IMG/VR virus record: IMGVR_UViG_3300003471_000084
Location: 1-62,083 of that record
Source: a virus
Lineage: Duplodnaviria; Caudoviricetes
Reading direction: 5' to 3' (one strand)
Length of the DNA: 62,083 bases
The notes beneath the pieces are model-generated. The model was given only the letters and a program-made list of their open reading frames with translations. It was not told the DNA's origin and searched no databases. This document shows, piece by piece, positions 2,215-57,118 of the stretch. Numbering within the stretch: position 1 is the stretch's first letter; each line of letters opens with the position of its first letter. Made by a program: the position numbers and the translations under genes.

Positions 2215-2234
2215 GTTGTTTTAACAAACAGCAG

Positions 2235-2251: not shown

Positions 2252-2274
2252 CCTCTAGAAGGAGGTGGAAGCAA

Positions 2275-2944: not shown

Positions 2945-3151
2945 ATGAAGATATTAGGAAAAGCTGTTCGAAAACTGTATCGATTTAATTGTCCGAATTG
3001 CGGGAGCCGGTTAGAAGCCGAGTATCAAGAGATGGAGGATATCGGCGGTAAGATTAATAAGTTCTTCTGCCCCATCTGCCGTAAAGACCGTTTTATCAAT
3101 TGGTCATCTCTAAGTAAGAAAATCGTCTATGAGGATGATGCTCCGCAATAA
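2945..3151 (+). CDS. Small zinc-finger protein
   Basis: CPNC...CPIC. Confidence 0.6.
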   Translation: MKILGKAVRKLYRFNCPNCGSRLEAEYQEMEDIGGKINKFFCPICRKDRFINWSSLSKKIVYEDDAPQ

Positions 3152-3171
3152 TTACACTCCCTATTATGAAA
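3144..3171 (+). promoter_or_regulatory. Phage-specific promoter-like motif CGC-N7-ACA-N4-CTWTWAYGRRR (first of 9 copies)
   Basis: Fixed-spacing copies start at 3144, 3725, 4216, 5053, 5260, 5514, 7692, 9723, 29932, each upstream of a gene or RNA. Confidence 0.75.
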
Positions 3172-3510: not shown

Positions 3511-3735
3511 ATGGTGATTTTCATGATCGGAATGTTGACTGGGATGTTGGTTGGTTGTGTCTTGTGGACTCTTATATTAAGGCATAGATCAATTGGATCG
3601 CTACGAGTGGATACTTCAGACCCGGACGATGGTCCATATTTGTTCTTGGAACTATCAAAGAATATTGACGATGTTTATCGGAAGAAGTACATAACTCTAA
3701 AGGTTAATACTCAAAGCTATCTTCCGCATAAATAA
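3511..3735 (+). CDS. Small membrane-anchored hypothetical protein
   Basis: RBS AAGGAGG; N-terminal TM helix. Confidence 0.7.
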   Translation: MVIFMIGMLTGMLVGCVLWTLILRHRSIGSLRVDTSDPDDGPYLFLELSKNIDDVYRKKYITLKVNTQSYLPHK

Positions 3736-3778
3736 CAGCTCCTTTTATGGAACTGAATATTTTGAAAGGAGAACAACA

Positions 3779-4165: not shown

Positions 4166-4266
4166 TCGTTTATAAACGAGGAGTCCGTGTAAATTACATA
4201 GGCTCTTCGTTTTTTCGCGTTAATAACATGGGCTTTTACGGAACGGAGTAAAAAGCTTTTTATCTC

Positions 4267-5051: not shown

Positions 5052-5094
5052 GCGCAGATTTTACATTCCCTATTATGGAAGGATGGTGTATCTA

Positions 5095-5258: not shown

Positions 5259-5307
5259 ACGCTAAAATAACAACCTCTATTATGAAAACAATTTAGGAGG
5301 TAATGTT

Positions 5308-5484: not shown

Positions 5485-5537
5485 GAGGCTTAGGCCTCTT
5501 ACTTTTGCATTTACGCGAAACTTACAAGGACTATTAT

Positions 5538-5616
5538 GAGAAACAGTTAGCTCAGTGGTAAGAGCGCAACACAACCGTTGAGGTCACGGGTTCGAATCCC
5601 GTACAGTTTCTCACCA
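5538..5616 (+). ncRNA. Atypical tRNA-like RNA (10-bp acceptor stem, 14-nt anticodon arm, encoded CCA)
   Basis: D arm GCTC-AGTGGTAA-GAGC; T arm ACGGG-TTCGAAT-CCCGT; 3' ACCA; anticodon arm CAAC-ACAACC-GTTG. Confidence 0.8.
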
Positions 5617-7684: not shown

Positions 7685-7735
7685 GCAAGTACGCATAAAT
7701 CACAAACACTATTATGAAAGGGAGGTGATTGCTTT

Positions 7736-8331: not shown

Positions 8332-8883
8332 ATGAAGGTATTAAGACAAAGAGAATTGGAAGTTAAGAATATTCGGGTTGGTGACCAGATCGTCATCCCG
8401 TTGGCTGAGCTTGGTGAATTTACCGCAACTGCGCAGAAAATCACAGACAAAGGACCGTTGTTCTTGTTTGACGAATGCATTGCAAAGCAGCCTATGAATA
8501 AGAAATGGACCAACAAAGGCGGTTATGAAAAATCGGATCTCCGAAAGTGGATCAACACGACGTTGCTGGATGCATTTCCGGAAGAATTGAAGAACAGGAT
8601 GAACAATCTTACCATTCCTACATACGGCCAGATATTCGGCCATGACGATTGGTATGATCGTGCTATAGAGCCTGACAGTGACGAGCAGTTTCCTCTCATG
8701 GTAATAAGAAAAAACCGTATTGCCGACTTCAACAACGACTACGAATGGTACTGGCTGGCAAACGCAACGAGAGAAGAAGTGTCTGCGTCTTCTTTCGCTC
8801 GTGTGTACCACGATGGCGGTACGTACTACGACGGCGCGTCGATCTCTCTTGGGGTTCGTCCGGCATTCGTGTTGGTTGACTAG
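8332..8883 (+). CDS. Remote DGR target: stand-alone DUF6273/C-type-lectin-like protein
   Basis: C-terminal VR matches TR; GGYEKSDL, IPTYGQIFG, QFPL, WYWL and GVRPAF motifs parallel those of 55076..56050. Confidence 0.88.
   Translation: MKVLRQRELEVKNIRVGDQIVIPLAELGEFTATAQKITDKGPLFLFDECIAKQPMNKKWTNKGGYEKSDLRKWINTTLLDAFPEELKNRMNNLTIPTYGQIFGHDDWYDRAIEPDSDEQFPLMVIRKNRIADFNNDYEWYWLANATREEVSASSFARVYHDGGTYYDGASISLGVRPAFVLVD
8780..8863 (+). repeat. DGR variable repeat VR2
   Basis: 84 bp colinear with TR 57119-57202; 15 mismatches, all at TR adenines. Confidence 0.95.
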
Positions 8884-9710: not shown

Positions 9711-9791
9711 GGTTCTTCTCTTCGCGAAAATAACACAGCCTTTAATGGAAGAACAAAGTAAACTTTTCTAAATTTGAAAGGAGAAATAACA

Positions 9792-28367: not shown

Positions 28368-28396
28368 TTGAAATGGTAATCATTGGGTAGTATAAT
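28368..28396 (+). promoter_or_regulatory. Sigma-A promoter TTGAAA-N17-TATAAT
   Basis: Near-consensus with optimal spacing. Confidence 0.75.
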
Positions 28397-29077: not shown

Positions 29078-29866
29078 ATGAAACGAAAAATTTTAGCGAT
29101 GCTAGTCGCTTTGACATTCGTAATATCGTTAGTTGGATGTAGTGGGTCGGCTCTATCCGATGATCAAATTAATATGCCCTCTTCGTCTAAGAAGATGAAG
29201 GGTGTTAACTACCAAGAAGTTATCGCTCAACTGCAAGAAGCTGGTTTTACAAATGTTGAAACAGAAGTTTTAAACGATTTGGTTCTTGGATTGACGACCA
29301 AAGATGGCGAAGTCGAGAAAGTAGCTGTAGATGGTGATACTCTCTTTAGCACCGATGATAAGTTTTCCAAGGATGCGAATATTATAGTGACTTATCATAC
29401 ATTCCCTGCTAAAGAGGAAAATACAAATAAGGAATCGGAAGCAACTCAACAACCTACAGAAAAACTCGAAACTAAAGACGAACATCTTACTGTTGACAAT
29501 AGTGATGATCTCTCTGCTCTCTTACAGCTCAAAGATCCAACGGATTCAAGTGTAGAAGAGTTTGCCGATAAACATTATGGACAAACAGTAGAATTTAATG
29601 GTCGTATCGATTACATCACAAATCACGGTGATTATAAAACTCGATGGGATCTTTTAGTGTCTTCTGGAGATTACGACGAGAACACTCAAACAGGCCCTAC
29701 TTTTAAATTTAACGATGTTGGATTACAACAGTTAGGGATTAAGGATTTGTTCCTTCCGGACTTTGTTAAAGTCGGAACCAACATCAGCATAGTTGCAAAG
29801 ATTGGTAAATATGACCCAACGTCTGGAATTTTCATTCTTAACCCAATATCGATAACAGAAAGATAA
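29078..29866 (+). CDS. Lipoprotein (DUF4839-like), moron
   Basis: Signal peptide with LVGC lipobox; upstream TGGTATACT extended -10; terminator 29881-29917. Confidence 0.75.
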   Translation: MKRKILAMLVALTFVISLVGCSGSALSDDQINMPSSSKKMKGVNYQEVIAQLQEAGFTNVETEVLNDLVLGLTTKDGEVEKVAVDGDTLFSTDDKFSKDANIIVTYHTFPAKEENTNKESEATQQPTEKLETKDEHLTVDNSDDLSALLQLKDPTDSSVEEFADKHYGQTVEFNGRIDYITNHGDYKTRWDLLVSSGDYDENTQTGPTFKFNDVGLQQLGIKDLFLPDFVKVGTNISIVAKIGKYDPTSGIFILNPISITER

Positions 29867-30035
29867 ATCAATCAATTTATAAAGCCTGTGCCTTAACCGG
29901 TATGGGCTTTTTCTTTTGTCATTTTTAGTCACGCGAAAAAAACATACCCTTTTATGAAGAGAGAAGGATAAAATGCGACCTGCATTTACTTTCTCTTTTC
30001 TTTTGTTCAAAAAATTGAAAGGAGGCTCAAGAAAA

Positions 30036-30353
30036 ATGTTAGAAAACAGATTTAAAACAAAATTGATTCGGGAACTAAAAAAAATGTTCCCAGGGTGTAT
30101 GGTAATCCATACTGATCCAAATGAAATTCAAGGTATACCCGATTTGATCGTGTTATATGAGGACACGTGGGCCGCCTTAGAAGGTAAAAAAAGTGAAGAC
30201 GCACCATGTCAACCAAATCAGCCTTACTATGTTGATTTAATGAACAAAATGTCATTTGCAGATTTTATTTATCCAGAAAATAAAGAGGAGGTGCTGTATG
30301 AACTTCAACAAACATTTGAATCTAGAAGGGCAACACGCTTTTCTCGGTGCTAG
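30036..30353 (+). CDS. VRR-NUC-like PD-(D/E)xK nuclease / resolvase
   Basis: LE...QGIPDL...LEGK...Q motifs. Confidence 0.75.
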   Translation: MLENRFKTKLIRELKKMFPGCMVIHTDPNEIQGIPDLIVLYEDTWAALEGKKSEDAPCQPNQPYYVDLMNKMSFADFIYPENKEEVLYELQQTFESRRATRFSRC

Positions 30354-30855
30354 CAAGTATCATTGGATAAACTACAGTCCTGAAAAAGTTGCCGAGTCCT
30401 ATTCGAAATTCTTGGCTACCCAAAAAGGAACCATACTTCACGAGTTTGCTGAACAGTGTATCAGGCTCGGGCAGAAATTACCTAAGTCTCAGAAGACACT
30501 TAATATGTACGTAAATGATGCCATTGGTTTCAAAATGATTACTGAGCAAACTCTATTCTATTCTGAAAATTGCTTCGGAACAGCAGATGCTATCTCGTTC
30601 AGGAATGGGCGTCTGAGAATTCACGATTTGAAGACTGGCGTAACCCCGGCACATATGGAGCAGCTTTTGGTTTATGTAGCCCTTTTCTGTTTGGAGTATA
30701 AGGTTAAACCATCAGAAATTGATATTGAATTACGATTATATCAAAACGATCAAATTTTGTATCTCGAACCAACAGCCGAAGAAATCGTCCCAATTATGGA
30801 CAAGATTATCACTTTTGACAAGGTGATTTCAAAAATTAAAGCAGAGGAGGAATAA
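30298..30855 (+). CDS. DUF2800-like PD-(D/E)xK nuclease
   Basis: GTILHE, FGTADAI, IHDLKTG, QLLVY. Confidence 0.75.
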   Translation: MNFNKHLNLEGQHAFLGASKYHWINYSPEKVAESYSKFLATQKGTILHEFAEQCIRLGQKLPKSQKTLNMYVNDAIGFKMITEQTLFYSENCFGTADAISFRNGRLRIHDLKTGVTPAHMEQLLVYVALFCLEYKVKPSEIDIELRLYQNDQILYLEPTAEEIVPIMDKIITFDKVISKIKAEEE

Positions 30856-30858: not shown

Positions 30859-33543
30859 ATGAATCCCATAGCGGAAGACATTTTAAAGCATTATGGAACG
30901 CCAAAACGTTCTGGTCGCTATCCTTGGGGTTCGGGCGACAATCCTTACCAACACAGCGGAGACTTTCTTAGTCGAGTTGAAGAGCTTAAAAAGAAAGGAT
31001 TGACCGAAAAGCAGATAGCGGAAACTTTTGGTCTTACCACCTCCCAACTAAGAACTCAGCGATCTTTAGCAAAAGATGAACGACGTGCTCTTGATGTTGC
31101 TACAGCCAGAGGTCTTCGCGAAAAAGGATATAGTCTAAACGAGATTGCGGAAAAGATGGGTTACAACAATGACTCGTCTGTGCGTTCTCTTCTCGATGAG
31201 GGTTCCGAAGCTCGTATGAATCAGGCGAAGAAAACTGCTGACTTTCTGAGAAAGCAGATCGATGAAAAAGGGATGATCGATGTTGGCGTTGGTGTTGAGA
31301 GGGAATTAGGTATTTCTAAAGAGAAACTTAGTCAAGCTCTGTACATATTGGAAATGGAAGGCTATCCCGTTTATGGTGGCGGCGTTCCACAGGTTACCAA
31401 TGCCGGAAAGCAAACCAACATCAAAGTTATCTGTCCTCCGGGAACAGAACACAAAGAAATATATCAGTTTGATAAGATCAATTCTGTCACTGATTATGTG
31501 TCTCACGATGGAGGCGATACTTTCGACACTTTTGTCTATCCAAAAAGCATGGATTCTAAACGTGTTCAGATTCGTTATAAGGAAGAAGGCGGCGCAGACA
31601 AAGACGGAGTTATCGAACTTCGCAGAGGTGTCGACGATCTGGCCTTAGGTGATTCTCATTATGCTCAAGTTCGAATTCTGGTAGATGGAAAGAAGTATAT
31701 CAAAGGAATGGCTATCTATTCAGATGATCTTCCGGATGGTGTTGATGTAATGTTTAACACAAATAAGAAAGTTGGAACTCCGAAAGGCGATGTTCTTAAA
31801 AACATTACTGCGGACCCTGACAATCCGTTCGGTTCTCTAATCAAAGCCGGTGGACAAAGTTATTACATCGACAAAAATGGAGAACGCCAGCTTTCCCTAA
31901 TTAATAAGAGAGCAGAAGAAGGCGATTGGGGTGAATGGGCGGACAAGTTACCATCTCAGTTTCTATCAAAACAGAGTATGACTCTGATAAAGAAACAGCT
32001 TGGTTTGGCGGCTGCCGACAAAATAGCTGAATTTGATGAGATTTGTTCTCTTACGAATCCTACTGTTAAAAAGGCTCTCTTGAAATCTTTTGCTGATGAT
32101 TGTGATTCGGCTGCCGTGCATCTACAGGCTGCTGCTTTACCACGACAGAAGTATCAGGTTATCCTCCCGATCACATCGATGAAAGATACTGAGGTCTATG
32201 CTCCGAATTACGAAAACGGAGAGAAAGTAGCATTGGTAAGATTTCCTCATGGTGGAACGTTTGAGATTCCTGTATTGACCGTGAACAACAAGCAGTCCGA
32301 TGCTCGACGAATTCTTGGAAATGCTCTCGATGCGGTTGGTATCAATAGTAAAGTTGCAGAGCGTTTGTCCGGCGCTGATTTTGATGGTGATACAGTCATG
32401 GTCATTCCTATGAGCGGTAAAGTCAAGATCACTTCTACAAAACCGCTTGAAGGTCTTGAAGGATTCGATTCTAAAATGACTTATGGTCCTGGATCGTATA
32501 AAGAAGGTAGTATCAGGTTGATGAAAAACACCCAGACAGAAATGGGAAAAATCTCAAACCTGATTACTGACATGACTTTGAAAGGCGCCACAGATAAAGA
32601 ACTCGCAAGAGCCGTCCGCCATAGTATGGTTGTCATTGATGCCGAGAAACACAAACTCAATTATAAACAAAGCGAGATAGATAACGGAATCTCTTCTCTT
32701 AAGAAAAAGTATCAAGGAACTGTCGATGAAGATGGTAAATACCATGAAGGCGCCGCTACTCTAATTTCGAGAGCTAAGTCTGAGACTACTGTTCTTAAAA
32801 GAAAAGGAAGCCCAATCATCGATAAAGAAACCGGTGAACAAAGTTACAAAGAAGTCCGTGAGGAGTACATCGATAAGAAGACGGGTAAGGTGAAAATCAG
32901 AACTCAAGGCAGCACAAAGATGGCAGAAACAAGAGATGCTTATACCCTATCTTCAGGAACACCCCAGGAAGAAGCCTATGCTGACTACGCCAATCGAATG
33001 AAGGCCCTTGCCAACCAAGCTCGCAAAGAAATGATGAATACTGGTAAGATTGCCTATTCTTCTTCGGCTAAGGCGACCTATCAAAGGGAAGTAGACTCCC
33101 TAACAGCCCAACTCAATATAGCTTTAAAGAATGCCCCACGTGAACGGCAGGCCCAGGTTTCTGCAAATGCAACCGTTGATGCGAAAAAGCAAGCCAATCC
33201 CGACATGACAAATAGCGAGATAAAGAAAGCTAAACAACAAGAGCTAACAAAAGCTCGTGCTGCTGTTGGTGCTAGGCGTGAACCGATTAAGGTCTCCGAT
33301 CGCGAATGGGAAGCTATTCAAGCAGGCGCAATAAGTGAGAACAAGTTGAATCAGATCATCAACAATGTTGACATTGATAGTCTTCGTCAGCGAGCAACTC
33401 CTCGTGCCACGACAAAGCTTAGCTCGGCTAAGGTGAATAAGATTTCGTCGATGAGTGCTTCTGGTTACAACACCGCCGAGATAGCGAAAGCTCTAGGTGT
33501 GTCCCCATCTACTGTGTCCAACTACCTAAAAGGAAAGGAGTGA
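30859..33543 (+). CDS. Putative single-chain two-barrel (YonO/RdRP-like) RNA polymerase with terminal HTH domains
   Basis: KDGVI, QVR...KG, VRFP, SGADFDGD (32371-32391), MGKISN, VIDAEK in the order seen in cellular RdRP-like enzymes. Confidence 0.78.
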   Translation: MNPIAEDILKHYGTPKRSGRYPWGSGDNPYQHSGDFLSRVEELKKKGLTEKQIAETFGLTTSQLRTQRSLAKDERRALDVATARGLREKGYSLNEIAEKMGYNNDSSVRSLLDEGSEARMNQAKKTADFLRKQIDEKGMIDVGVGVERELGISKEKLSQALYILEMEGYPVYGGGVPQVTNAGKQTNIKVICPPGTEHKEIYQFDKINSVTDYVSHDGGDTFDTFVYPKSMDSKRVQIRYKEEGGADKDGVIELRRGVDDLALGDSHYAQVRILVDGKKYIKGMAIYSDDLPDGVDVMFNTNKKVGTPKGDVLKNITADPDNPFGSLIKAGGQSYYIDKNGERQLSLINKRAEEGDWGEWADKLPSQFLSKQSMTLIKKQLGLAAADKIAEFDEICSLTNPTVKKALLKSFADDCDSAAVHLQAAALPRQKYQVILPITSMKDTEVYAPNYENGEKVALVRFPHGGTFEIPVLTVNNKQSDARRILGNALDAVGINSKVAERLSGADFDGDTVMVIPMSGKVKITSTKPLEGLEGFDSKMTYGPGSYKEGSIRLMKNTQTEMGKISNLITDMTLKGATDKELARAVRHSMVVIDAEKHKLNYKQSEIDNGISSLKKKYQGTVDEDGKYHEGAATLISRAKSETTVLKRKGSPIIDKETGEQSYKEVREEYIDKKTGKVKIRTQGSTKMAETRDAYTLSSGTPQEEAYADYANRMKALANQARKEMMNTGKIAYSSSAKATYQREVDSLTAQLNIALKNAPRERQAQVSANATVDAKKQANPDMTNSEIKKAKQQELTKARAAVGARREPIKVSDREWEAIQAGAISENKLNQIINNVDIDSLRQRATPRATTKLSSAKVNKISSMSASGYNTAEIAKALGVSPSTVSNYLKGKE

Positions 33544-33550: not shown

Positions 33551-33802
33551 ATGCAAAACACATGCATGTTAACTACGTTTGACAATCCTTTCAATCCGTT
33601 CGAACAGTTCACTTCTTGGCTTTTGTTCGACATGGAAAAAGGATACAACTCTTGTGCTTACTTGGCAAGAATTGCTCGAACTTCTGATCAGCTTTCGGAA
33701 GAAGAAAACAATTTGGAAGTTGAAAGAGCGATTGATGAGATAGTCAAGCATGACTTCCGTAATATCTACAAGAAAGTAAAACAACAAGTTACAAGTGCTT
33801 AA
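33551..33802 (+). CDS. Hypothetical phage protein
   Basis: RBS AAAGGAG; LTTFDNPFNPF motif. Confidence 0.7.
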   Translation: MQNTCMLTTFDNPFNPFEQFTSWLLFDMEKGYNSCAYLARIARTSDQLSEEENNLEVERAIDEIVKHDFRNIYKKVKQQVTSA

Positions 33803-33883
33803 ACGGATTGTTTACTTGTTTCGAAAAGTGTTTAGTTTATTTCTTTATTAGAATTTACTACAACATCCAACTACTGATAACTA

Positions 33884-33952
33884 TGGGGAGGGGTCCGTAA
33901 AAAGCACACCCCCCTCCGTCATCGCGGCCCTCCTCAAAAATTCCCCGGAGGA
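33884..33952. other. Candidate genome-end/packaging (cos-like) region
   Basis: GC-rich non-coding G- and C-tracts upstream of the terminase/HNH module. Confidence 0.4.
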
Positions 33953-33972
33953 CATATTTGAGAGGGGTTTTC

Positions 33973-34107
33973 GGTTTCTGTATAGCATTTAAAAGAGCTC
34001 GCAAGGTTTGTCAATGGTCAAAAACCATTTTTTTCAATCCTCCTTTTCTCCTTTCAAGTTTTGTTTAGGATGAACCTTGTGAGTTCTTTTAAATGCTATG
34101 CAAAACC
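33973..34107 (+). ncRNA. Long hairpin RNA with anti-Shine-Dalgarno loop
   Basis: 33-bp stem 33980-34012 / 34069-34101 in which all 5 non-Watson-Crick pairs are G-U on the + strand; loop contains TCCTCCTTTTCTCCTTTCAA. Confidence 0.7.
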
Positions 34108-35260: not shown

Positions 35261-35629
35261 ATGGAGAGTATCCTGACTTCAATTAAGAAGTTACTCGGAA
35301 TTGCAGAAGAGTACACACATTTCGATGCGGATCTCATTATGCACATCAATTCTGCGTTCTCAATTCTGACTCAGATTGGTGTAGGTCCGACCGAAGGATT
35401 CTCCATTCAGGATGAAGATGCCAAGTGGACAGACTTTATACCCAAGACTCCGAAGTTGGAAATGATAAAGTCATACATACATCAGAAAGTTAAGCTTCTC
35501 TTTGATCCTCCTACCAGTTCCGCAGTAATCGAGGCCACGAATCGGATGACGAGCGAGCTTGAGTGGAGAATTCAGGTTGCAGTCGATCCGATTAAATCTG
35601 AGAGTAAGGAGGAAATTCAAAATGAGTAA
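35261..35629 (+). CDS. Head-tail connector protein
   Basis: SILTSIKKLLG...FDADL...ELEWRI; position. Confidence 0.65.
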   Translation: MESILTSIKKLLGIAEEYTHFDADLIMHINSAFSILTQIGVGPTEGFSIQDEDAKWTDFIPKTPKLEMIKSYIHQKVKLLFDPPTSSAVIEATNRMTSELEWRIQVAVDPIKSESKEEIQNE

Positions 35630-35990
35630 TAACTTTATAGCTCACCACGGCATCCTCGGAATGAAATGGGGAGTCCGAAGAACCCAAGCTCAGCTCACAA
35701 GATCCAGAGGACGTTCTTCAACCGAAGAATCGCATGAGGATTACAAGAAATCCCATACATCGAAGAGCGTTAAATCTATGAGTGATACTGAGCTTCGTAG
35801 TAGGCTCAATCGTATCCAGATGGAGCGACAGTATTCTCAGTTGTCCGAAGCAAATGTTAGCCAGGGAAAAGCATTTGCACAAAAATTCCTTAAAGGTGCT
35901 ACTACTGTCGCTACCGTCACAACAACTGCTATCACGCTCTACAACAATTACGAGAAAATCAAGGGAATTCTTGAGAAGATCAAGAATTAG
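35622..35990 (+). CDS. HHGILGMKWG-motif (DUF7211-like) protein 1
   Basis: N-terminal IAHHGILGMKWGVRR. Confidence 0.75.
   Translation: MSNNFIAHHGILGMKWGVRRTQAQLTRSRGRSSTEESHEDYKKSHTSKSVKSMSDTELRSRLNRIQMERQYSQLSEANVSQGKAFAQKFLKGATTVATVTTTAITLYNNYEKIKGILEKIKN
35641..35696 (+). repeat. 56-bp perfect direct repeat, copy 1
   Basis: Identical to 37780-37835. Confidence 0.9.
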
Positions 35991-36000: not shown

Positions 36001-37746
36001 ATGGCGTTATCGAACACTGCCGTACCAAAATATTACGGCATGTTTCGAGATGCCGTAATTCGAGGAGAGATACCGGTATGTAAGGAAATCTCTATGGAGA
36101 TGAATCGTATCGACGATCTCATAGCCAATCCAGGTGTTTTCTACGATGATCAAGCTGTCGAGGGATTTATCGAGTATTGTGAGAATGAACTGACTTTGAC
36201 AGATGGCGCAGACCTCACTCTTCTCGACACTTTCAAAGTATGGGCTGAGCAAATCTTCGGATGGTATTATTTCGAAGAACGAAGTGTCTATGAGCCGTAT
36301 CCAGATGGGCACGGTGGCCGCTACGTCAACAAGACTATCAAGCGTAGGCTCATCAACAAACAATATCTGATCGTTGCCAGAGGTGCAGCGAAGTCGATGT
36401 ATGGGTCCTGTATTCAGAACTACGGTTTGAACGTGGACACAGCAACAACGCATCAGATAACCACTGCTCCAACAATGAAGCTGGCCGAAGAGGTTTTGTC
36501 TCCAATACGAACTGCTATCGTGCGATCGCGTGGTCCACTTTACAAGTTTCTAACCGATGGCTCATTGCAGAATACCACGGGATCAAAAGCGAATCGAGTG
36601 AAGCTTGCCGCCACAAAAAAGGGTGTTGAGAATTTTCTAACTGGTTCTTTGCTAGAAATCCGACCAATGAGTATCAATAAGCTTCAAGGTCTAAGGTCTA
36701 AGTACAACACGGTAGATGAATGGCTTTCGGGCGACATTCGAGAGGATGTTGTTGGCGCTATCGAACAAGGAGCATCCAAGGTTGACGACTACCTCATCGT
36801 TGCAATGAGTTCCGAAGGTACGGTCCGTAATGGAGCCGGCGATACAATCAAAATGGAGTTGATGGAAATCCTTAAGGGCGACTACATAGCCCCTAATGTG
36901 TCCATTTGGTACTATAAGCTCGATTCTATCGACGAGGTATCTGATCCTGATATGTGGCCGAAAGCCAATCCAAATATCGGAAAGACTGTCAGCTACGAGA
37001 CTTATCAGCGTGACGTCGAAAGAGCGGAAAAAGCTCCAGCAGCACGGAACGACATTTTAGCAAAGCGCTTCGGTATTCCCATGGAAGGCTACACTTATTA
37101 TTTTACATATGAGGAGACCCTTCCACACAAGAGACGGAAATACTGGCAAATGCCTTGTTCGCTCGGTGCGGATCTTTCGCAGGGTGACGACTTCTGTGCG
37201 TTTACATTTCTATTTCCTCTACCAAGAGGTGCTTTCGGGATAAAAACTCGAAACTACATTTCTTCATTAACCCTGATGAAACTCCCAGCCGCGATGCGAA
37301 TTAAATATGATAAATTCATGGCTGAGGGCAGTCTCGTTGTTCTTGAGGGAACAGTGTTAGACATGATGCAGGTTTATGAAGACTTGGATAATCATATAAC
37401 CGAATGTAATTACGATGTTCGATGTTTTGGATTTGACCCCTACAACGCCAAAGAGTTCGTTGAAAGGTGGCAATCCGAAAACGGTCCATTCGGTATCGAG
37501 AAAGTTATACAGGGAGCCAAAACAGAATCCGTTCCTTTGGGTGAGTTAAAGAAACTTTCCGAGGAGCGGATGCTTTTATTTGACGAGGATTTAATGACCT
37601 TCGCCATGGGCAACTGTATAACTCTTGAGGACACGAATGGAAATCGAAAACTGCTTAAAAAGCGATATGATCAGAAAATCGATGCGGTTGCCGCTATGAT
37701 GGATGCTTATATCGCTTACAAGCTTAACAAAGATGCTTTTGAGTAA
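36001..37746 (+). CDS. terL: Terminase large subunit
   Basis: ARGAAKS Walker A, VDEW Walker B, GADLS nuclease motif, FDPYN, KIDAVAA. Confidence 0.92.
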   Translation: MALSNTAVPKYYGMFRDAVIRGEIPVCKEISMEMNRIDDLIANPGVFYDDQAVEGFIEYCENELTLTDGADLTLLDTFKVWAEQIFGWYYFEERSVYEPYPDGHGGRYVNKTIKRRLINKQYLIVARGAAKSMYGSCIQNYGLNVDTATTHQITTAPTMKLAEEVLSPIRTAIVRSRGPLYKFLTDGSLQNTTGSKANRVKLAATKKGVENFLTGSLLEIRPMSINKLQGLRSKYNTVDEWLSGDIREDVVGAIEQGASKVDDYLIVAMSSEGTVRNGAGDTIKMELMEILKGDYIAPNVSIWYYKLDSIDEVSDPDMWPKANPNIGKTVSYETYQRDVERAEKAPAARNDILAKRFGIPMEGYTYYFTYEETLPHKRRKYWQMPCSLGADLSQGDDFCAFTFLFPLPRGAFGIKTRNYISSLTLMKLPAAMRIKYDKFMAEGSLVVLEGTVLDMMQVYEDLDNHITECNYDVRCFGFDPYNAKEFVERWQSENGPFGIEKVIQGAKTESVPLGELKKLSEERMLLFDEDLMTFAMGNCITLEDTNGNRKLLKKRYDQKIDAVAAMMDAYIAYKLNKDAFE

Positions 37747-37763
37747 AGGAGGTGGTGATTAAG

Positions 37764-38231
37764 ATGGATAATGCTTTGACTCACCACGGCATCCTCGGAA
37801 TGAAATGGGGAGTCCGAAGAACCCAAGCTCAGCTCGGTGGTCTTAGTAAAAAGGATAACCGATGGGTAAATCGCAACAGCGACAAGATAACCGATAAAGC
37901 TAAAAGAAAGTCTTCCACAGAGTTGGATAAGTATGCTAGCGAGCTTTTAAAAGATCCAAATGCCATAAACAAATCTGGAAAGCTCAGTGCTGCAACTATT
38001 AATTCTTATAATCGGAAGATGGCTTCGCTAATGAGCGAGAAGGTTTCCGGATTGACATCGCCTTCTGGAAAAGTGGTGCAATTCGTAGCTAAACGAGGAG
38101 AAGTCGGTGTCTTTATGGCGCTTGCCGATCAAGGCTACAACATGAATCAACTTCGAAATGGCATCTACGATTCGGGTAAAGTTGCCTACAAGAAAACCCT
38201 TATCGATAAAGTTGAAACCAGAAGGAGGTGA
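37764..38231 (+). CDS. HHGILGMKWG-motif (DUF7211-like) protein 2
   Basis: N-terminal LTHHGILGMKWGVRR. Confidence 0.75.
   Translation: MDNALTHHGILGMKWGVRRTQAQLGGLSKKDNRWVNRNSDKITDKAKRKSSTELDKYASELLKDPNAINKSGKLSAATINSYNRKMASLMSEKVSGLTSPSGKVVQFVAKRGEVGVFMALADQGYNMNQLRNGIYDSGKVAYKKTLIDKVETRRR
37780..37835 (+). repeat. 56-bp perfect direct repeat, copy 2
   Basis: Identical to 35641-35696. Confidence 0.9.
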
Positions 38232-38240
38232 TGATTCAAA

Positions 38241-40181
38241 ATGGAAATGCCGATTAGTTCCAGGCTGAAACATGCTTGGAACATTTTTATCAACAAAGAG
38301 CCTCCGAATTATCATCAGGATTCGGGAGCTGGCTACTACTCGAGACCGGATAGACCTAGACTTACTAGAGGTAACGAACAATCTATTGTAACTGCTGTCT
38401 ATAACCGTATCGCATTAGATGCCTCCTCAATAAATATCCGACACGTTCGGTTGGACGAAAACGGTCGCTACATATCCGGCATCAACTCTGGATTAAACGG
38501 CTGTCTCTCTTTGGAAGCAAACATGGATCAGACAGGTCGTTCTTTTATTCAAGACGTAGTAATGTCAATGCTGGACGAAGGAAGTGTCGCTATTGTTCCG
38601 ATCGATACAACTTTCAACCCGACGCTCACCAGTGCTTACGACATCAATTCGATGCGAACTGGTAAAATCTTGGAATGGTATCCAAAACATATCAAGGTTA
38701 GGCTCTATAATGACACAACAGGGTTGAAAGAAGACAAGCTGGTTCCGAAAAGTATAGCGGCGATTATAGAGAATCCCCTATATGCGGTTATCAACGAATC
38801 AAATTCTACAATGAAGCGCTTGGTTCGAAAACTGAATCTTTTGGATTTGATCGATGAGCAGAGCGGTTCTGGTAAATTAGATTTGATTATCCAGCTACCC
38901 TATGTTATCAAGACCGAAGCAAGGCGTCAACAAGCCGATAATCGGCGTAAAGATATCGAAGATCAGTTGTCTGGTTCGAAGTATGGTATTGCTTATACCG
39001 ATGGTACAGAGCGTATCACACAGTTGAATCGTCCCGTCGAGAACAATCTAATGAAGCAGATTGAATACCTAACGAGTATGCTATATAGCCAGTTAGGAAT
39101 CACTCAGAGCATCTTGGATGGTACTGCTGACGATAAAACGATGCTCAACTACTATAACCGAACGATTGAGCCTATTCTTTCGGCTATTGTTGATGAAATG
39201 AAGCGAAAGTTTCTAACAAAAACAGCTCGGTCACAATTCCAATCGATTTCCTTCTTTAGAGACCCGTTCAAACTTGTTCCTGTCTCGGAAATTTCTGAAA
39301 TCGCCGACAAGTTTACAAGAAACGAGATCATGTCTTCCAATGAAATCCGACAGATTATCGGTCTAAAACCGTCTGACGATCCAAAAGCCGATGAACTCAG
39401 AAATAAGAATCTGAACCAATCTGCGGAGACTCTGGCGGAAGAGGAAACCAAAGGGGGAGAAATCGACGAAGATCAAGGAATGACAAGAGAAGAATACGAA
39501 GCGGCCATTTCGGATTTGGACGATTTGGATGCACAACTGGATGAAATCGAACAGGAGCTTGATGACGATGAAAAAGATCTAAAACACTATGCGAGCCCGT
39601 ACTACGATCCTGTAAAAGCTCATGAATATTATCTGAAAAACCGGGAATTGACAGGTCGGAAATCCACCGCCAAACTTAACGACGCTGGAAAAAATGCAGC
39701 TCAATATGTTAAGGAGAGGCTTACGACCGAACGGAAAAGCCGAGTTCAATCCCATAAAGATCAGACGGATTCTCAAATTGAGCGTCTACGAGATCAAAAA
39801 CAGGCCAACGTAGAATCTCATCGTAACGCCATGCAAGGTAAGATTGATGATTTGAGAAATTTTCTTAAAGGTATGAGCAAAGAGCAAAGAGCTCAGAACA
39901 AGGAGAAAATTTACAATGTCATTGCTTCCCTTCGCGAGGACAACAAGCGAGAGCGTATTCGCTTACAGGCGGAGTTCAAAGCTTCTAGCAATTCTTTGCG
40001 TTCTGATCACAAAACCGAGCGAACTCGTTTGAAAGATGAGTACGACGAAAAGTACATCCAGGAGTTGGACAAGATTCGTTCGGACTCAAGCTTTAAAAAA
40101 GCTTCGAAGAAAAGCGGAAAGTCCAAAGATCCCAAATCGAAGTTGGCTAAATACATGATAAAAGGAGGAAATTCAAAATGA
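38241..40181 (+). CDS. Portal protein with ~250-aa C-terminal extension
   Basis: HK97-like portal ending SSNEIRQIIGLKP; acidic linker, then LKHYASPYYDP and a basic coiled coil. Confidence 0.85.
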   Translation: MEMPISSRLKHAWNIFINKEPPNYHQDSGAGYYSRPDRPRLTRGNEQSIVTAVYNRIALDASSINIRHVRLDENGRYISGINSGLNGCLSLEANMDQTGRSFIQDVVMSMLDEGSVAIVPIDTTFNPTLTSAYDINSMRTGKILEWYPKHIKVRLYNDTTGLKEDKLVPKSIAAIIENPLYAVINESNSTMKRLVRKLNLLDLIDEQSGSGKLDLIIQLPYVIKTEARRQQADNRRKDIEDQLSGSKYGIAYTDGTERITQLNRPVENNLMKQIEYLTSMLYSQLGITQSILDGTADDKTMLNYYNRTIEPILSAIVDEMKRKFLTKTARSQFQSISFFRDPFKLVPVSEISEIADKFTRNEIMSSNEIRQIIGLKPSDDPKADELRNKNLNQSAETLAEEETKGGEIDEDQGMTREEYEAAISDLDDLDAQLDEIEQELDDDEKDLKHYASPYYDPVKAHEYYLKNRELTGRKSTAKLNDAGKNAAQYVKERLTTERKSRVQSHKDQTDSQIERLRDQKQANVESHRNAMQGKIDDLRNFLKGMSKEQRAQNKEKIYNVIASLREDNKRERIRLQAEFKASSNSLRSDHKTERTRLKDEYDEKYIQELDKIRSDSSFKKASKKSGKSKDPKSKLAKYMIKGGNSK

Positions 40182-41980
40182 AGAAATTCGATTTCAGTGG
40201 CTGGGCTACTCGAAATAATCTTAAATGCTCAGATGGGCGAACCATCATGAAAGATGCATTTAAGCATCTTGACGGGAAGACGGTTCCTATTGTGTGGAAC
40301 CACCAGCACAACGACCCTCTTAACGTTCTTGGGCACGCTTTACTCGAGAATCGCGACGAGGGTGTTTATACTTACGGCACGTTTAATGACACAGAATCCG
40401 GAAGAAATGCAAAGCTTTTGGTCGAGCATGGGGACGTAACCGCGCTTTCCATTTGGGCAAACCAACTAAAACAGCAAGGGGCGAACGTGCTTCACGGGGA
40501 AATTCGTGAACTGAGCCTTGTTCTGGCCGGGGCAAACCCCGGGGCATTCATCGATTCTGTGATGGCTCATGGAGAGGAATCTGAAGAGGAAGCTATCATC
40601 TACACAGGTGAGAATATTTCTCTGTTCCATGCCGAAGAGCAAAAAGCTCCTCCTTCTGAGGAGAAGAAAGAACCTGAAAAGCAGGAAAAGAAGCCTGAGG
40701 GCGAAAAAACAGTCGCCGATGTATTCAACACGCTCAATGAAGAGCAAAAGACCGTTGTTTATGCAATGATCGGACAAGCCCTTGAGAGTGATAACAATGA
40801 AGAATCTAAAGGAGGAAACGAAACTATGAAACACAATCTCTTTGATAAGGACACTCAGACGGACAAAAACGTGCTGAGCCATTCTGACCAGCAGGACATC
40901 ATTACCTTGGCCAAGTCTAACAGCGTGGGAAGTTTTAGCCGTGCTATGGACATTTATGTCGAGAACAATAAGGAAACCATGGCACATGGGATCGACAGCA
41001 TCGAAACTTTGTTCCCGGATTTCAAGGATGTTCGTCCTGGCGCTCCGGAAATGCTTACCACCGACCAGGGCTGGATTGCCAGAGTTATGGCCAAGGTTCA
41101 CAAGAGCCCTATCTCTCGTATCCGTACTCGTCAAGCTGACGTTCGTGACATCACAAACCTTCGTGCGAAGGGTTACGTGAAGAGCGCTGAAAAGAAGTAC
41201 GCCGGCAACATCAAACTGGTGTCTCGTACTACTGATCCGCAGACCGTCTATGTTAAGTCGAAACTGGATCGCGATGATATCATCGACATTGTTGATTTCG
41301 ACGTTGTTCAGTATATGTACGGCATTGATCGTATGAATATGAACGAGGAACTTGCTCGTGCCATTATGCTTGGCGATGGGCGTGAAGACGGTGAAGACGG
41401 AAAGATTAGTGCGGATCATATTCGTCCGGTCTGGACCGATGACGAACTTTACACGATCCACGCCGATGTTGATGTTGCGAAGATGCGCACTGAGCTTCAG
41501 GGCACGAGTACCGCGGCTAACTTCGGTGACAACTACATCTATGCCGAAACCATCATCCAGACCTTGCTCTATGCCCGCGAGAAGTATAAGGGCTCTGGCT
41601 CTCCCGACTTCTACTGCACACCGCACCTTCTGAACGTGATGCTGCTTGCGAGAGACCTGAACGGCCGTCGCATTTACGACAATGTCAATGAGCTGAAGGC
41701 TGCGCTGAATGTCGGCGAAATCATCACTGCTGAGCAGTTTGAAGGTCAGATTCGTACTACGGCTGACAATAAGAAAAAGAAGCTGCTCGGTATCATGTAC
41801 AACCTGGCAGATTACTCTCTTGGCGCGACAAAGGGTGGCGAGATCACACATTTCACTGATTTTGATATCGACTTCAACCAGCAGAAGAGTCTTCTGGAAA
41901 CCCGTTGTTCCGGCGCCAACACTCGCGTCCTCTCTGCCATCGCTCTTGAAGAGGACGTTACAGGCGGAGCCCAAGGTTAA
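40178..41980 (+). CDS. Prohead protease - major capsid protein fusion
   Basis: WNHQH, ALSI, ELSLVLAGANPGA protease motifs; capsid-like C-terminal part; in-frame internal RBS and ATG at 40826. Confidence 0.88.
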   Translation: MKKFDFSGWATRNNLKCSDGRTIMKDAFKHLDGKTVPIVWNHQHNDPLNVLGHALLENRDEGVYTYGTFNDTESGRNAKLLVEHGDVTALSIWANQLKQQGANVLHGEIRELSLVLAGANPGAFIDSVMAHGEESEEEAIIYTGENISLFHAEEQKAPPSEEKKEPEKQEKKPEGEKTVADVFNTLNEEQKTVVYAMIGQALESDNNEESKGGNETMKHNLFDKDTQTDKNVLSHSDQQDIITLAKSNSVGSFSRAMDIYVENNKETMAHGIDSIETLFPDFKDVRPGAPEMLTTDQGWIARVMAKVHKSPISRIRTRQADVRDITNLRAKGYVKSAEKKYAGNIKLVSRTTDPQTVYVKSKLDRDDIIDIVDFDVVQYMYGIDRMNMNEELARAIMLGDGREDGEDGKISADHIRPVWTDDELYTIHADVDVAKMRTELQGTSTAANFGDNYIYAETIIQTLLYAREKYKGSGSPDFYCTPHLLNVMLLARDLNGRRIYDNVNELKAALNVGEIITAEQFEGQIRTTADNKKKKLLGIMYNLADYSLGATKGGEITHFTDFDIDFNQQKSLLETRCSGANTRVLSAIALEEDVTGGAQG

Positions 41981-41999
41981 ACAGTAAAGGAGATTCAAA

Positions 42000-42317
42000 A
42001 TGGCGAAATGGTATGGAGTAATCGGCTTCAATGAAATGGTCGAGACTGTTCCTGGCGTGTATGAAGGACAAATCACCGAGCATCCGTACTATGGTGATTT
42101 GATTCGAAACGCAAGAAAGCTTCAGTCTTCCGATCAACTCAACGACAACATCAATGTTGCGAATGATATTAGCATTGTGGCCGATCCATTCGCCAATCAG
42201 AACTTCCATTCAATGTTGTACGTTGAGTTTATGGGTGCTAAATGGAAAATAACCAACGTTGAAGTTCAGTATCCAAGACTTATTCTCAGTATTGGGGGTG
42301 TTTATAATGGCGGATAG
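42000..42317 (+). CDS. Head closure / head-tail adaptor
   Basis: Position, size, WKITNVE beta-rich motif. Confidence 0.6.
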   Translation: MAKWYGVIGFNEMVETVPGVYEGQITEHPYYGDLIRNARKLQSSDQLNDNINVANDISIVADPFANQNFHSMLYVEFMGAKWKITNVEVQYPRLILSIGGVYNGG

Positions 42318-55075: not shown

Positions 55076-56050
55076 ATGAAAATTACAGATTACGAAAAGG
55101 TCTCAAACCTCGCAATAAACAATGTGTTTTTGATTGACGGGGATAATGGTACCAAAACAATCATGGCTTCCGATCTTGCGAAAGCTTTGGTTAAGCTTCT
55201 AAGCTCTAAGGATTTTATTTCAGGGGTAAATCTTTCAGAGCTTGATCAGATCAATGCTCTGTCAGCAAGTGACAAGATTCTTATTGGAACGTCGGCCGGA
55301 AACAAGGCTATCGGAGCAAATGACGCGCTTTTTGCAATGCTTGATGCTTTCATTGCTCCGGAGCAGCGTCGTGTTACTTTCAGAGGAAAGAATTTAGGAT
55401 CAGTCTTTACCCCTGAGCAAAAGACAAACATTCAAAATGGAACATTCAAAGGGTTTTTCCTTGGTGACTATTGGGTTATCGGCGGCCACACCTGGCGTAT
55501 TGTAGACTTTAATTATTGGTATAATTGCGGGGATACTGCATTTACCAATAATCATCTTGTCATTATGCCTGACGTTGCTTTGTATAATGCACAAATGAAT
55601 GCTGAAAATGTAACAACTGGCGGCTATGTTGGATCGCTGATGTATACGACCAATCTTGCAAATGCTAAAACCATTATCAATTCAGCTTTCGGCAGTTCGG
55701 TGCTAACGCATAGAGATCTTCTCGTAAATGCCGTAGCGAATGGCGCTCCTTCAGGTCATGCATGGTACGATTCTTCGGTGGAACTCCCTAACGAAATTAT
55801 GATGTATGGAAGTTATATCTTTTCTCCGGCTGCAAATGGAACCACGATCCCGTATCTTTATACCATCAACAAAACACAATTGGCGCTGTTCCAGGTCGTA
55901 CCAAAATTCATTGTGAATAGATCATACAATCAATGGTTGAGGGATGTCGTGTCTGCGTCTTTTTTCGCTTTTGTGGGCAGCATTGGCCTTACGACCTACC
56001 ACTACGCGTCGAACTCTTTTGGGGTTCGTCCGGCATTCCCTATTGGTTAG
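55076..56050 (+). CDS. DGR target 1: putative receptor-binding tail protein with C-terminal lectin-like domain
   Basis: End of tail module; C-terminal VR; ends GVRPAFPIG. Confidence 0.88.
   Translation: MKITDYEKVSNLAINNVFLIDGDNGTKTIMASDLAKALVKLLSSKDFISGVNLSELDQINALSASDKILIGTSAGNKAIGANDALFAMLDAFIAPEQRRVTFRGKNLGSVFTPEQKTNIQNGTFKGFFLGDYWVIGGHTWRIVDFNYWYNCGDTAFTNNHLVIMPDVALYNAQMNAENVTTGGYVGSLMYTTNLANAKTIINSAFGSSVLTHRDLLVNAVANGAPSGHAWYDSSVELPNEIMMYGSYIFSPAANGTTIPYLYTINKTQLALFQVVPKFIVNRSYNQWLRDVVSASFFAFVGSIGLTTYHYASNSFGVRPAFPIG
55950..56033 (+). repeat. DGR variable repeat VR1
   Basis: 84 bp colinear with TR; 14 mismatches, all at TR adenines. Confidence 0.95.
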
Positions 56051-56052: not shown

Positions 56053-56077
56053 AATCTAGGGGCCTTGTGCCCCGATT
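56053..56077 (+). other. Post-VR1 GC-rich hairpin (DGR homing element)
   Basis: AATC-TA-GGGGC-CTTGT-GCCCC-GATT. Confidence 0.75.
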
Positions 56078-56619: not shown

Positions 56620-57110
56620 TGAGTGTTCTCGTAAGTGACCGAAAAGAGTCCAAATTCGAGGCAATAACTTACTCGGTCGAGTTGAGAAATCTAATCATTG
56701 AACTTATGCAACGGGGATTCGGTATCAAAGATTTGAATGCTGTCGCTCGTCAACGGTATATATTTGGAAAAGACAATATAGAGAATCCAGCGAAATACGT
56801 TTATTTGATACAGACTTTTAAAGAGCGAATCCATTTGACGGCTTCTTTAGTAACGAGTAACGTAAGGGCTGCTAACTCTATTTATCCGACCTCTCTTGCA
56901 GAATACGAACAGAGACGAGGTTATCAGAATATCGCCATAGCCAACTGTGAACAGCTTATTTCTGAGCTACAGCAAATTGTCGAGGTCTTCGACGTTGATA
57001 TCAATATCTATGGCAAATACATCCAAGCTATCGACCGAGAAATCGGTTTGATAAAGAAATGGCGTCAACGCGACAACAAGATTAAGTCACATCTACAGGG
57101 TAACATCTAA
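56619..57110 (+). CDS. avd: DGR accessory variability determinant (Avd-like four-helix bundle)
   Basis: Immediately upstream of TR and RT; helical, ends IGLIKKWRQRD. Confidence 0.75.
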   Translation: MSVLVSDRKESKFEAITYSVELRNLIIELMQRGFGIKDLNAVARQRYIFGKDNIENPAKYVYLIQTFKERIHLTASLVTSNVRAANSIYPTSLAEYEQRRGYQNIAIANCEQLISELQQIVEVFDVDINIYGKYIQAIDREIGLIKKWRQRDNKIKSHLQGNI

Positions 57111-57118
57111 ATCTGCGC

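Follow-up and report, generated by a model that had tools for sequence, protein, structure and literature searches.

Single-chain two-barrel RNA polymerases

RNA polymerases that hold two barrels in a single chain are rare, and to our knowledge only YonO, gp66 of a crAss-like phage and the enzymes of Thermus phages have been studied. A homologue of these enzymes, with helix-turn-helix (HTH) domains at both ends, is encoded in IMGVR_UViG_3300003471_000084, the record of a virus of the Caudoviricetes (Duplodnaviria) that was analyzed over its entire length of 62,083 bases, called the window in what follows. The subject here is this protein of 894 amino acids, together with a DNA motif of 29 bp, CGC-N7-ACA-N4-CTWTWATG-RAA, that recurs in the same genome. 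The protein is probably, if with real room for doubt, a DNA-dependent RNA polymerase of the phage that starts transcription at this motif as its own promoter, perhaps by means of its HTH domains.

Among the described systems, YonO of the Bacillus phage SPbeta is a proven DNA-dependent RNA polymerase, which transcribes the late operon of its phage (Forrest et al., 2017, PMC5467207). Like the window protein, it is a phage-encoded single chain of approximately 840-890 residues that its RxP and DxDGD residues assign to the two-barrel superfamily. It has no Pfam domain at an expectation value (E) of 0.01 or below, and hence no Pfam HTH. It matches phrog_8308, not phrog_4291, and phrog_8308 is not among the best 25 of the 35 PHROG matches of the window protein.

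The non-virion RNA polymerases of Thermus phages (P23-45 gp64, P74 gp62 and P32 gp64) are likewise single-chain two-barrel enzymes. They have a promoter motif of their own, which was assigned in part through its co-occurrence with the gene, and P23-45 gp64 is DNA-dependent, as is gp96 of the same phage (bioRxiv 2022.12.01.518664). They differ from the window protein in their size of about 590 residues, in the GC-rich nature of their promoter and in the absence of any sequence similarity, and the term "helix-turn-helix" occurs 0 times in that preprint. [quoted passage not shown] Its best structural matches, QDE-1 of Neurospora and RDR2 of plants, are eukaryotic RNA-silencing enzymes and, unlike the window protein, have no HTH.

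Four phage proteins of the same family, those of Faecalibacterium phage FP_oengus, Lactococcus phage P092 (gp75), Arthrobacter phage Mudcat (gp94) and Streptomyces phage Rima (gp86), are 39-54% identical to the window protein over 99% of its length and share with it the HTH at both ends and the DxDGD motif. The window copy differs from them in that it belongs to a temperate phage of gut Clostridia that has an integrase and a diversity-generating retroelement. A temperate lifestyle had been put forward in an earlier note made from the bare sequence (hereafter the original prediction), and the integrase gene bears it out.

Prior record and spread of the family

The window protein matches phrog_4291, named "RNA-dependent RNA polymerase", with E=0 and 1349.4 bits, residues 4-893 of its 894 being aligned to positions 7-908 of the 909 in the profile. 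The family is thus already known from annotation, and it is known, including its exact architecture, from one preprint as well. The main text of Koert et al. (2021, bioRxiv 10.1101/842583) presents the gene as a signature of an actinobacteriophage supercluster and of Lactococcus and Faecalibacterium phages, describes an HTH at both ends and the DxDGD motif, reports an HHpred match of 95.68% to PF05183 over 286 columns, and states that the protein "could potentially have RNA polymerase activity". In addition, passages of Ruprich-Robert and Thuriaux (2010, PMC2919709) list five "YonO-like" families, with a Lactococcus phage 1706 protein among them, a tie of which to PHROG 4291 is not claimed here. 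By this record, the protein is not new. The expectation of the original prediction that automated annotation could see only an HTH protein holds in part. Of 40 phage records listed, 22 name an HTH or DNA-binding protein, 8 a hypothetical protein or gp, and 2 nothing, and a metagenome-assembled genome (MAG) at NCBI also names the homologue only as a helix-turn-helix protein, but PHROG 4291 and the remaining 8 of the 40 already say RNA-dependent RNA polymerase.

The family is abundant. At least 7997 clusters at 90% identity were found by a word-indexed search, and an exhaustive search returned 2641 representatives at E<=1e-3, 1004 of them at E<=1e-30. When 50,697 phage records were searched by tblastn, 251 matched the polymerase, 249 of them over at least 80% of the protein and all at less than 60% identity; their host names include Arthrobacter (95), Gordonia (55), Streptomyces (54), Lactococcus (13), Faecalibacterium (2) and others. 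Relatives are also encoded in 96 stretches of species-representative bacterial genomes, 80 of which (1.456 Mb) were kept as related prophage loci; these are mostly from Lachnospiraceae, Oscillospiraceae and Ruminococcus, and the closest relative, at 90%, lies in a Lachnoclostridium MAG. Cultured strains with such prophages include Hungatella hathewayi, [Ruminococcus] torques ATCC 27756, Clostridium leptum DSM 753 and Blautia faecis.

The value of single-chain two-barrel RNA polymerases lies in their use as models of the ancestral transcription enzyme, and the PHROG 4291 family is far more abundant than those that have been studied, being present in prophages of common gut Clostridia, cultured strains among them. 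A related phage, Oengus of Faecalibacterium, is reported in passages of PMC5883640 to occur in up to 40% of human gut virome samples.

Fold and active site

The AlphaFold2 model of the window protein, which was built on 80 of 150 aligned sequences, all of them single-stretch full-length matches, has a mean predicted local distance difference test (pLDDT) of 87.3 and a predicted template modeling score (pTM) of 0.80. Comparison of this model with the PDB by Foldseek gave 27 matches at E<=1e-3, and all the named ones are two-barrel polymerases. They include QDE-1 (E 9.3e-10, probability 1.00), the Thermus phage enzymes P74 gp62 (1.5e-6) and P32 gp64 (1.8e-6), RDR2 (2.9e-6) and P23-45 gp96 (2.2e-4), while values of 1.3e-2 and of 2-6e-2 were obtained for the crAss-like gp66 and for the largest subunits of cellular RNA polymerases, respectively. 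Among the viral structures of BFVD, the matches are other phage models resembling RNA-dependent RNA polymerases or RNA polymerases, including A7XX94 of Thermus virus P23-45.

With VIA-align, the model aligned to maize RDR2 (7w82, chain 393-981) at Z 15.5 over 353 residues with a root-mean-square deviation (rmsd) of 4.6, and to QDE-1 (7y7t_B) at Z 15.2 over 344 residues with an rmsd of 4.4, residues 680-1187 of that chain holding both barrels. Overall, the matches to these two eukaryotic enzymes reach Z 15.1-15.5 at 11-16% identity and cover both barrels, and the top matches extend over 344-367 residues at rmsd 4.4-4.6. The Thermus phage RNA polymerases give Z 11.5-13.3 over about 345 residues (13.3 for P74 gp62, 8f5m_B; P32 gp64 is 8f72), and Rpb1-type chains give Z of about 10-11 over model residues 421-631. 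Both of the barrels that the original prediction had called for thus appear in the predicted model.

All nine sequence strings picked out by the original prediction are found in the 894-residue translation exactly where it had placed them. Those of the polymerase core include KDGVI (residues 248-252), QVR (270-272), MGKISN (562-567) and VIDAEK (592-597), in addition to the RxP and DxDGD motifs (Table 1). Their conservation was assessed in an alignment of the window protein with 149 representatives (150 sequences, 47-66% identical to the query). Invariant columns are G250, Q270, R272, K282, G283, R461, P463, S504-G505-A506-D507, D509-G510-D511, M562, G563, N567, D594 and K597, and D249 and F508 are each conserved in at least 90% of the sequences. 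Because columns are invariant across 150 sequences at such levels of identity, the strings are not there by chance.

Eight universal residues of QDE-1 are given in passages of PMC2919709, namely D709, R738, K743, R962, P964, D1007, D1009 and D1011, and their order and spacing are matched by D249, R272, K282, R461, P463, D507, D509 and D511 of the window protein. On the basis of order, spacing and fold alignment, it is proposed that D249, R272 and K282 would belong to the β-like barrel, and that R461-x-P463 and D507-x-D509-G-D511 form the part of the active site that lies in the β'-like barrel. The predicted fold and the invariant catalytic residues together argue that the protein is, as first proposed, a single-chain two-barrel RNA polymerase homologue with HTH domains at its two ends.

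HTH domains and the N-terminal linear motif

Three HTH-like segments had been noticed in the protein, EKQIAETFGLT at residues 50-60, LNEIAEKMGY at 93-102 and TAEIAKALGVSPSTV at 872-886. The third lies in a C-terminal domain recognized by Pfam, for which HTH_38 scores 40.8 bits against a cut-off of 27. The first two fall below the Pfam cut-offs in the window protein (best HTH_7 E 2.6e-4, Sigma70_r4_2 E 6.1e-4), but the model places them in an N-terminal helical region (helices 36-45, 50-56, 61-88, 93-100, 105-112 and 114-137) in which both units, HTH1 and HTH2, are predicted as helix-turn-helix with pLDDT of about 84-86, and in the homologue from Mudcat HTH2 clears the cut-off (HTH_23 at residues 79-112, 35.1 bits where 24.6 are required). 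The C-terminal unit is therefore secure by Pfam, whereas the N-terminal pair is supported by the model and, for HTH2, by the homologue. The description of these domains as sigma-like can be retained only in the sense of a generic HTH: Sigma70_r4_2 does match residues 868-890 with 33.4 bits against a cut-off of 25.7, but HTH_38, HTH_23 and the resolvase HTH_7 score equally well or better, and Sigma70_r2 is not among the best 25 of the 49 Pfam families that match the polymerase.

The N terminus harbors a conserved linear motif (Table 1) in which H11, G13, S18, G19, R20, Y21, G24, S25, G26 and Q31 are each conserved in at least 90% of the 150 sequences. The same ten residues are invariant in 8 phages with hosts of 3 phyla or classes. 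Residues 1-33, with pLDDT below 50, are the sole disordered stretch of the model, and the near-invariance of this disordered N terminus spans Streptomyces phages to Clostridia prophages, which suggests that the motif is a docking motif for some partner.

A phage-specific DNA motif ahead of early genes

The 29-bp motif was first met in a repeat search as a family of 30-nt repeats in the early region. A weight matrix made from 24 sites, the window's own included, gives nine sites of at least 22.5 bits in the window and none between 7 and 22.5 bits. All nine are on the + strand and between open reading frames (ORFs), 10-60 nt before a start codon or a transfer RNA (tRNA) gene, and several follow terminator-like hairpins (Table 1). 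The pattern ACANNNNCTWTWATG has 8 matches in the window against 0.19 expected, a count that is circular since the pattern was derived from these same copies. A matrix made from the two other phages finds 8 sites when applied to the window and all 7 of those in Mudcat, where shuffled sequences give 0.2-0.3.

The pattern also has 9 sites in P092 and 4 in Mudcat. In P092, TTTTACATACCCTATAATGAAA occurs nine times in the early region, twice ahead of a tRNA, and one further copy is at 44437, while Mudcat has seven copies of CGCGTAAATTACACGGGCTATAATGAGAA, the last of which lies just before the block of endonuclease, exonuclease and polymerase genes (L002:35497). In Rima, whose genome is 60% G+C, two sites are present in the 23 kb examined, one just before the endonuclease gene (L085:19039). 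In SPbeta, a scan for the motif found no copy on the gene strand upstream of yonK, where the YonO-dependent start has been mapped (PMC5467207).

In the 80 related prophage loci, 175 matches to the motif are on the strand of the polymerase gene and 1 is on the other. Of the 70 loci with at least 2 kb of sequence upstream of the polymerase start, 68 have a copy within these 2 kb, mostly at -905 to -1100. Loci L032, L033, L036, L040 and L046 have clusters of 3-5 copies 5-9.5 kb downstream of the polymerase start, which suggests another genome order or circular permutation.

Specificity to the phages was assessed with a 25-nt pattern in five host genomes of relatives (22.7 Mb), the reversed pattern serving as the control. 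There are 21 matches against 1 for the control, and 18 of them lie 0.9-28 kb upstream of a polymerase gene, on the same strand. The other three all lie on another contig of the draft R. torques genome, two of them being letter-identical to prophage copies in H. hathewayi, and no match was found at an identifiable host locus in the five genomes. The motif is a new result of this analysis: no description of it was found in the literature searched, and the words "promoter", "repeat", "intergenic" and "transcription" occur 0 times in the main text of Koert et al. It offers an annotation marker for early transcription units across this group of phages.

Eight of the window copies, those in the early and replication region, would each head a short transcription unit. 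The ninth, located behind a terminator with a 12-bp stem, would head a unit made up of the endonuclease, exonuclease, polymerase and 83-residue protein genes. The next strong terminators on the + strand are at 56059-56073 and 58537-58561, as found in a scan outside 36201-42099. Given that no strong terminator lies in between in the scanned part, this unit could run on into the packaging and structural genes, which would echo the role of YonO at late genes.

Who reads the motif

The simplest reading of the co-occurrence of motif and gene is that the HTH-bearing polymerase reads the motif. No sigma factor or HTH regulator was recognized by Pfam in 20 other early ORFs of the window, and according to the main text of Koert et al. 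(2021), the HTH protein is the sole DNA-binding protein among the orthologues conserved across the supercluster. A DNA template is favored because the protein has three HTH units and because the characterized phage enzymes of single-chain, two-barrel type are DNA-dependent, namely YonO (PMC5467207) and P23-45 gp64 and gp96 (bioRxiv 2022.12.01.518664). That promoter recognition is built into the enzyme, as the original prediction had it, becomes more plausible, and more amenable to testing, with the finding of a conserved, phage-specific motif. A stronger claim, tentative and in our view somewhat doubtful, is that promoter specificity would here be built into the chain of a two-barrel RNA polymerase for the first time, its HTH domains reading a phage-only promoter from phages of Actinobacteria and Lactococcus to prophages of gut Clostridia.

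If the polymerase alone reads the motif, the two would constitute a compact orthogonal transcription system, one 100-kDa protein and one short DNA element being sufficient for transcription independently of the host, and the family would represent a natural experiment on the fusion of promoter recognition to a two-barrel core. In any case, a motif found only in phages provides a concrete template, with which the function of the polymerase can be tested directly.

The alternative that survives best, although it is unlikely, accepts the polymerase as real but takes the motif not to be its promoter: host RNA polymerase would recognize the TATAAT-like hexamer with the help of a phage factor bound at the CGC and ACA boxes, and the phage enzyme would have another task or other promoters. 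The middle promoters of phage T4, at which host RNA polymerase is aided by MotA, are a parallel. In P092 and Mudcat the hexamer matches TATAAT perfectly, and two window copies score as weak sigma-70 sites (TTTACG-16-TATTAT, 9/12). The location of the polymerase gene downstream of a motif copy would be simpler to explain if the host enzyme read the motif, and 8 of the 9 copies here are early, yet YonO transcribes late genes only (PMC5467207).

The architecture of the motif makes an ordinary host promoter unlikely. The spacing between TTACA and the TATAAT-like hexamer is 5 nt instead of 16-18, a -35-like hexamer is missing at the proper distance, and there is no TG extension, the hexamer being preceded in P092 by CCC, not TGN. 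Position 2 of the hexamer, equivalent to the -11A that is critical in sigma-70 promoters, varies among A, T and G; most prophage copies have T or G there, with TTTTAT as their commonest form. A sigma-70 scan flags 2 of the 9 window copies, with 9 of 12 matches each, and its totals are not above those of shuffled sequences. The involvement of host RNA polymerase also has to be reconciled with the absence of the motif from the 22.7 Mb of host DNA outside prophages, with the preservation of the whole 29-bp block across hosts of different phyla whose promoters differ, and with the fact that neither Pfam, in the 20 early ORFs, nor the main text of Koert et al., for the conserved orthologues, points to a separate conserved activator.

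Several observations weigh against the view that the protein is an RNA polymerase that reads the motif as its promoter. The link between the two is one of co-occurrence only, and host RNA polymerase with a phage activator would give the same pattern. In P092, the nearest copy is 5.8 kb upstream of the polymerase gene, the adjoining 2.2 kb being free of the motif, and the matrix made from the two other phages recovers 1 of the 9 P092 sites, because the upstream CGC half differs in this phage. In the gut phage record MT835495, the only two copies lie upstream of its polymerase gene, the other 49.8 kb being devoid of the motif. As the polymerase gene is itself downstream of a motif copy, the first enzyme molecules would need another source, be it read-through, a host promoter or the virion. 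At the level of the protein, phmmer finds nothing among PDB sequences at E<=10, and the 80-sequence family profile finds only HTH proteins there, save P23-45 gp96 (8h2n_A) at the DxDGD loop with E 0.72. Membership in the YonO family was tried and rejected, since hhalign of the 80-member profile against SPBc2 YonO gave a probability of 0.2%; the term "YonO-like" in the original prediction is thus justified in kind, as a single chain with two barrels, and not in sequence. The Pfam RdRP family (PF05183) scores 15.7 bits, below the gathering cut-off of 23.8, and reaches 19.2 bits in the P092 and 16.8 in the Mudcat homologue, all these matches starting from profile position 426 on, in the DxDGD region; remote homology to this family is nevertheless likely in view of the HHpred match reported by Koert et al. 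(2021). Finally, no biochemical study of the PHROG 4291 family was found in the literature searched, which was without subscription papers (e.g. on phage 1706 or ReqiPepy6) and supplements, and no activity, template preference or transcription start is recorded for any of its members in searchable papers.

Considerably less probable is that the protein is an RNA-dependent RNA polymerase that copies phage or host transcripts into double-stranded RNA, for instance in regulation or counter-defense. The best structural matches are the cellular RNA-dependent RNA polymerases RDR2 and QDE-1 (Z of about 15), the Pfam RdRP family matches weakly, and the name is in use in PHROG and GenBank. That name has been transferred from similarity at the level of the fold, however, and the abstract of PMC9508822 indicates that QDE-1 also accepts DNA templates. 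Moreover, the characterized phage single-chain two-barrel enzymes are all DNA-dependent, and three HTH units with a matching DNA motif point to DNA.

A role of the enzyme in replication or recombination instead of gene expression appears slightly more remote still. It would agree with the synteny by which endonuclease, exonuclease and polymerase genes follow one another in the window as in Mudcat, Rima and P092, and with the main text of Koert et al. (2021), where the gene is assigned to the replication module, at its conserved end. Against it, the phage has its own primase-polymerase of 1326 residues, and nine dispersed copies, all on one strand (in relatives, 175 against 1) and ahead of genes or a tRNA, are in keeping with promoters rather than with an origin. 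Lastly, a catalytically inactive polymerase core that serves as a scaffold, in a protein acting only as an HTH transcription factor, is hardly credible: many databases do name an HTH DNA-binding protein, but metal- and substrate-binding residues that are invariant across 150 sequences of about 50% overall identity are not expected of a dead enzyme.

Whether or not the polymerase is the reader, variation in its HTH2 can be set beside that of the motif: the recognition helix reads PGSVTNY in P092 instead of ESSVRSL, and P092 also lacks the CGC box, a single case that is not evidence. As a separate observation, Mudcat has 45.1% G+C and its host 63.4% (passages of PMC5513430), a gap that would be easier to tolerate if the phage were independent of host promoters.

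Genome layout and neighboring genes

The integrase gene is followed by a replication module that encodes an NAD ligase, the 1326-residue primase-polymerase (phrog_4210 and primase families), a helicase and NrdD, and then by the endonuclease, the RecB-type exonuclease, the polymerase, whose ORF is preceded by the ribosome-binding site GAGGAGG, the 83-residue protein and a G+C-rich gap (33803-34092). The right part of the window holds HNH, large terminase, portal, fused protease-capsid, tape measure and reverse transcriptase genes. Mudcat, Rima and P092 likewise have the genes for endonuclease, exonuclease, polymerase and small protein in this order at their right genome end, and in relatives the genome end or the packaging genes come after the small conserved protein.

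Table 1. Positions of the polymerase gene, its domains and motifs, the copies of the 29-bp motif and neighboring features in the window
Feature	Position	Strand	Basis or remark
Tyrosine integrase	538-1776	-	Fits a temperate phage
Motif copy	3143..3171	+	31.6 bits
Motif copy	3724..3752	+	23.4 bits
Weaker motif copy, TTTTACG for TWTWATG	4215..4243	+	Found only with the matrix from the two other phages (13.1 bits); 22.5 bits with the full matrix
Motif copy	5052..5080	+	30.0 bits
Motif copy directly after terminator-like hairpin	5259..5287	+	28.0 bits
Motif copy abutting tRNA gene 5540-5612, terminator-like hairpin 5479-5504 upstream	5513..5541	+	30.0 bits
Motif copy	7691..7719	+	31.3 bits
Motif copy	9722..9750	+	34.1 bits
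Terminator-like hairpin, 12-bp stem and T run, just before motif copy 29931	29881..29910	+	Hairpin scan
Motif copy upstream of endonuclease-exonuclease-polymerase block (ACGCGAAAAAAACATACCCTTTTATGAAG)	29931..29959	+	0.9 kb upstream of polymerase
Endonuclease, first gene past motif at 29931	29973..30353	+	phrog_93, E 9.8e-13
RecB-type exonuclease, likely start 30298	30256..30855	+	phrog_3953, E 4e-82
HTH-flanked two-barrel RNA polymerase homologue gene, PHROG 4291 family	30859..33543	+	ATG start, open frame, 894 amino acids
Conserved N-terminal linear motif, residues 9-31, L-x-HYG-x4-SGRYPWGSG-x2-P-x-Q, predicted disordered	30883..30951	+	Conservation and pLDDT
N-terminal helical region with two HTH-like units, residues 36-137	30964..31269	+	HTH1 about 47-66, HTH2 about 90-112 (model helices)
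Catalytic core with both barrels (predicted), residues 223-736	31525..33066	+	VIA-align and Foldseek matches of predicted model
RxP, R461-F-P463	32239..32247	+	R461 and P463 invariant in 150 sequences
Metal-binding DxDGD loop, G505-A-D-F-D-G-D511	32371..32391	+	Conserved in 150 sequences; weak Pfam RdRP match 498-604 on profile positions 426-539
C-terminal HTH, residues 852-891	33412..33531	+	HTH_38 E 1.8e-10, HTH_23 2.2e-9, Sigma70_r4_2 3.5e-8, all above Pfam cut-offs
Conserved 83-residue protein, PHROG 4303	33551..33802	+	phrog_4303, E 1.3e-38; no Pfam family

The 83-residue protein is a candidate cofactor of the polymerase. Its gene always begins 8-20 nt past that of the polymerase, including Mudcat gp95, Rima gp87 and P092 gp76, and 76 tblastn matches to it, with 42 distinct full-length ORFs, were found across the 80 related loci; 26 columns are invariant in 43 sequences. 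A predicted complex of the two proteins scored 0.00 against a mark of 0.32, with controls not folded, and counts neither way, and a search of the ESM Atlas with the small protein gave only chance-level eukaryotic clusters (<=0.92, <=160 shared features). The 290-nt gap between its gene and the first packaging-side gene contains G/C-rich inverted blocks, GGGGAGGGG ... CCCCCCTCC ... CCCCGGAGG, and is likely a cohesive-end (cos) region, as its position corresponds to the cohesive ends of lytic relatives.

A 56-nt stretch is 100% identical at 35641-35696 and 37780-37835, within ORFs 35622-35990 and 37764-38231, which flank the large terminase gene. It encodes an N-terminal tag of the DUF7211 family, HHGILGMKWGVRRTQAQL (Pfam E 1e-10 and 7.5e-10). 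Related prophages have 2-4 genes with this tag each, with 91 distinct tags in the loci examined, and one PHROG match of the tag bears the name "virion structural protein". In residues 1-40 of the polymerase, DUF7211 is not recognized by Pfam at E<=10. An hhalign comparison of the polymerase N terminus with the tag aligned 11 columns (L-x-H-[HY]-G) with a P value of 9.3e-4 and a probability of 22%, and "GPPYPLGGGD" variants of the tag resemble "SGRYPWGSGD" of the polymerase by eye. As a bolder extension, to be taken as a lead only, the N-terminal tag of the polymerase (HYG-x4-SGRYPWGSG), taken as akin to the DUF7211 tag of small head-module proteins, might load the enzyme into the capsid, so that it would arrive with the DNA and fire the early promoters.

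The diversity-generating retroelement consists of a template repeat (57108-57207), the reverse transcriptase gene (57313-58509) and variable repeats at 55939-56038 and 8769-8868. The latter form the C-termini of the products of the adjoining ORF 55076-56050 and of ORF 8332-8883, which is located in the early region, 48 kb away; both match phrog_21980. The variable repeats have 21 and 22 mismatches to the template repeat, of which 15 and 16 are at template adenines, and the others are at the repeat ends.

No recognizable repressor of CI or Cro type adjoins the integrase gene (1897-2943): ORF 1897-2214 encodes a DUF6431 protein, and ORFs 2221-2604 (- strand) and 2524-2943 have no Pfam family. 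The tRNA gene at 5540-5612, which begins at the last bases of a motif copy, is reported by ARAGORN as "tRNA-???" with the anticodon "aa". The best sigma-70-like site of its region (28368-28396, TTGAAA-17-TATAAT, 11/12) is upstream of gene 29078-29866, which encodes a protein with a lipoprotein-type signal peptide, matches phrog_29396, is closed by a terminator and looks like a separately expressed "moron".

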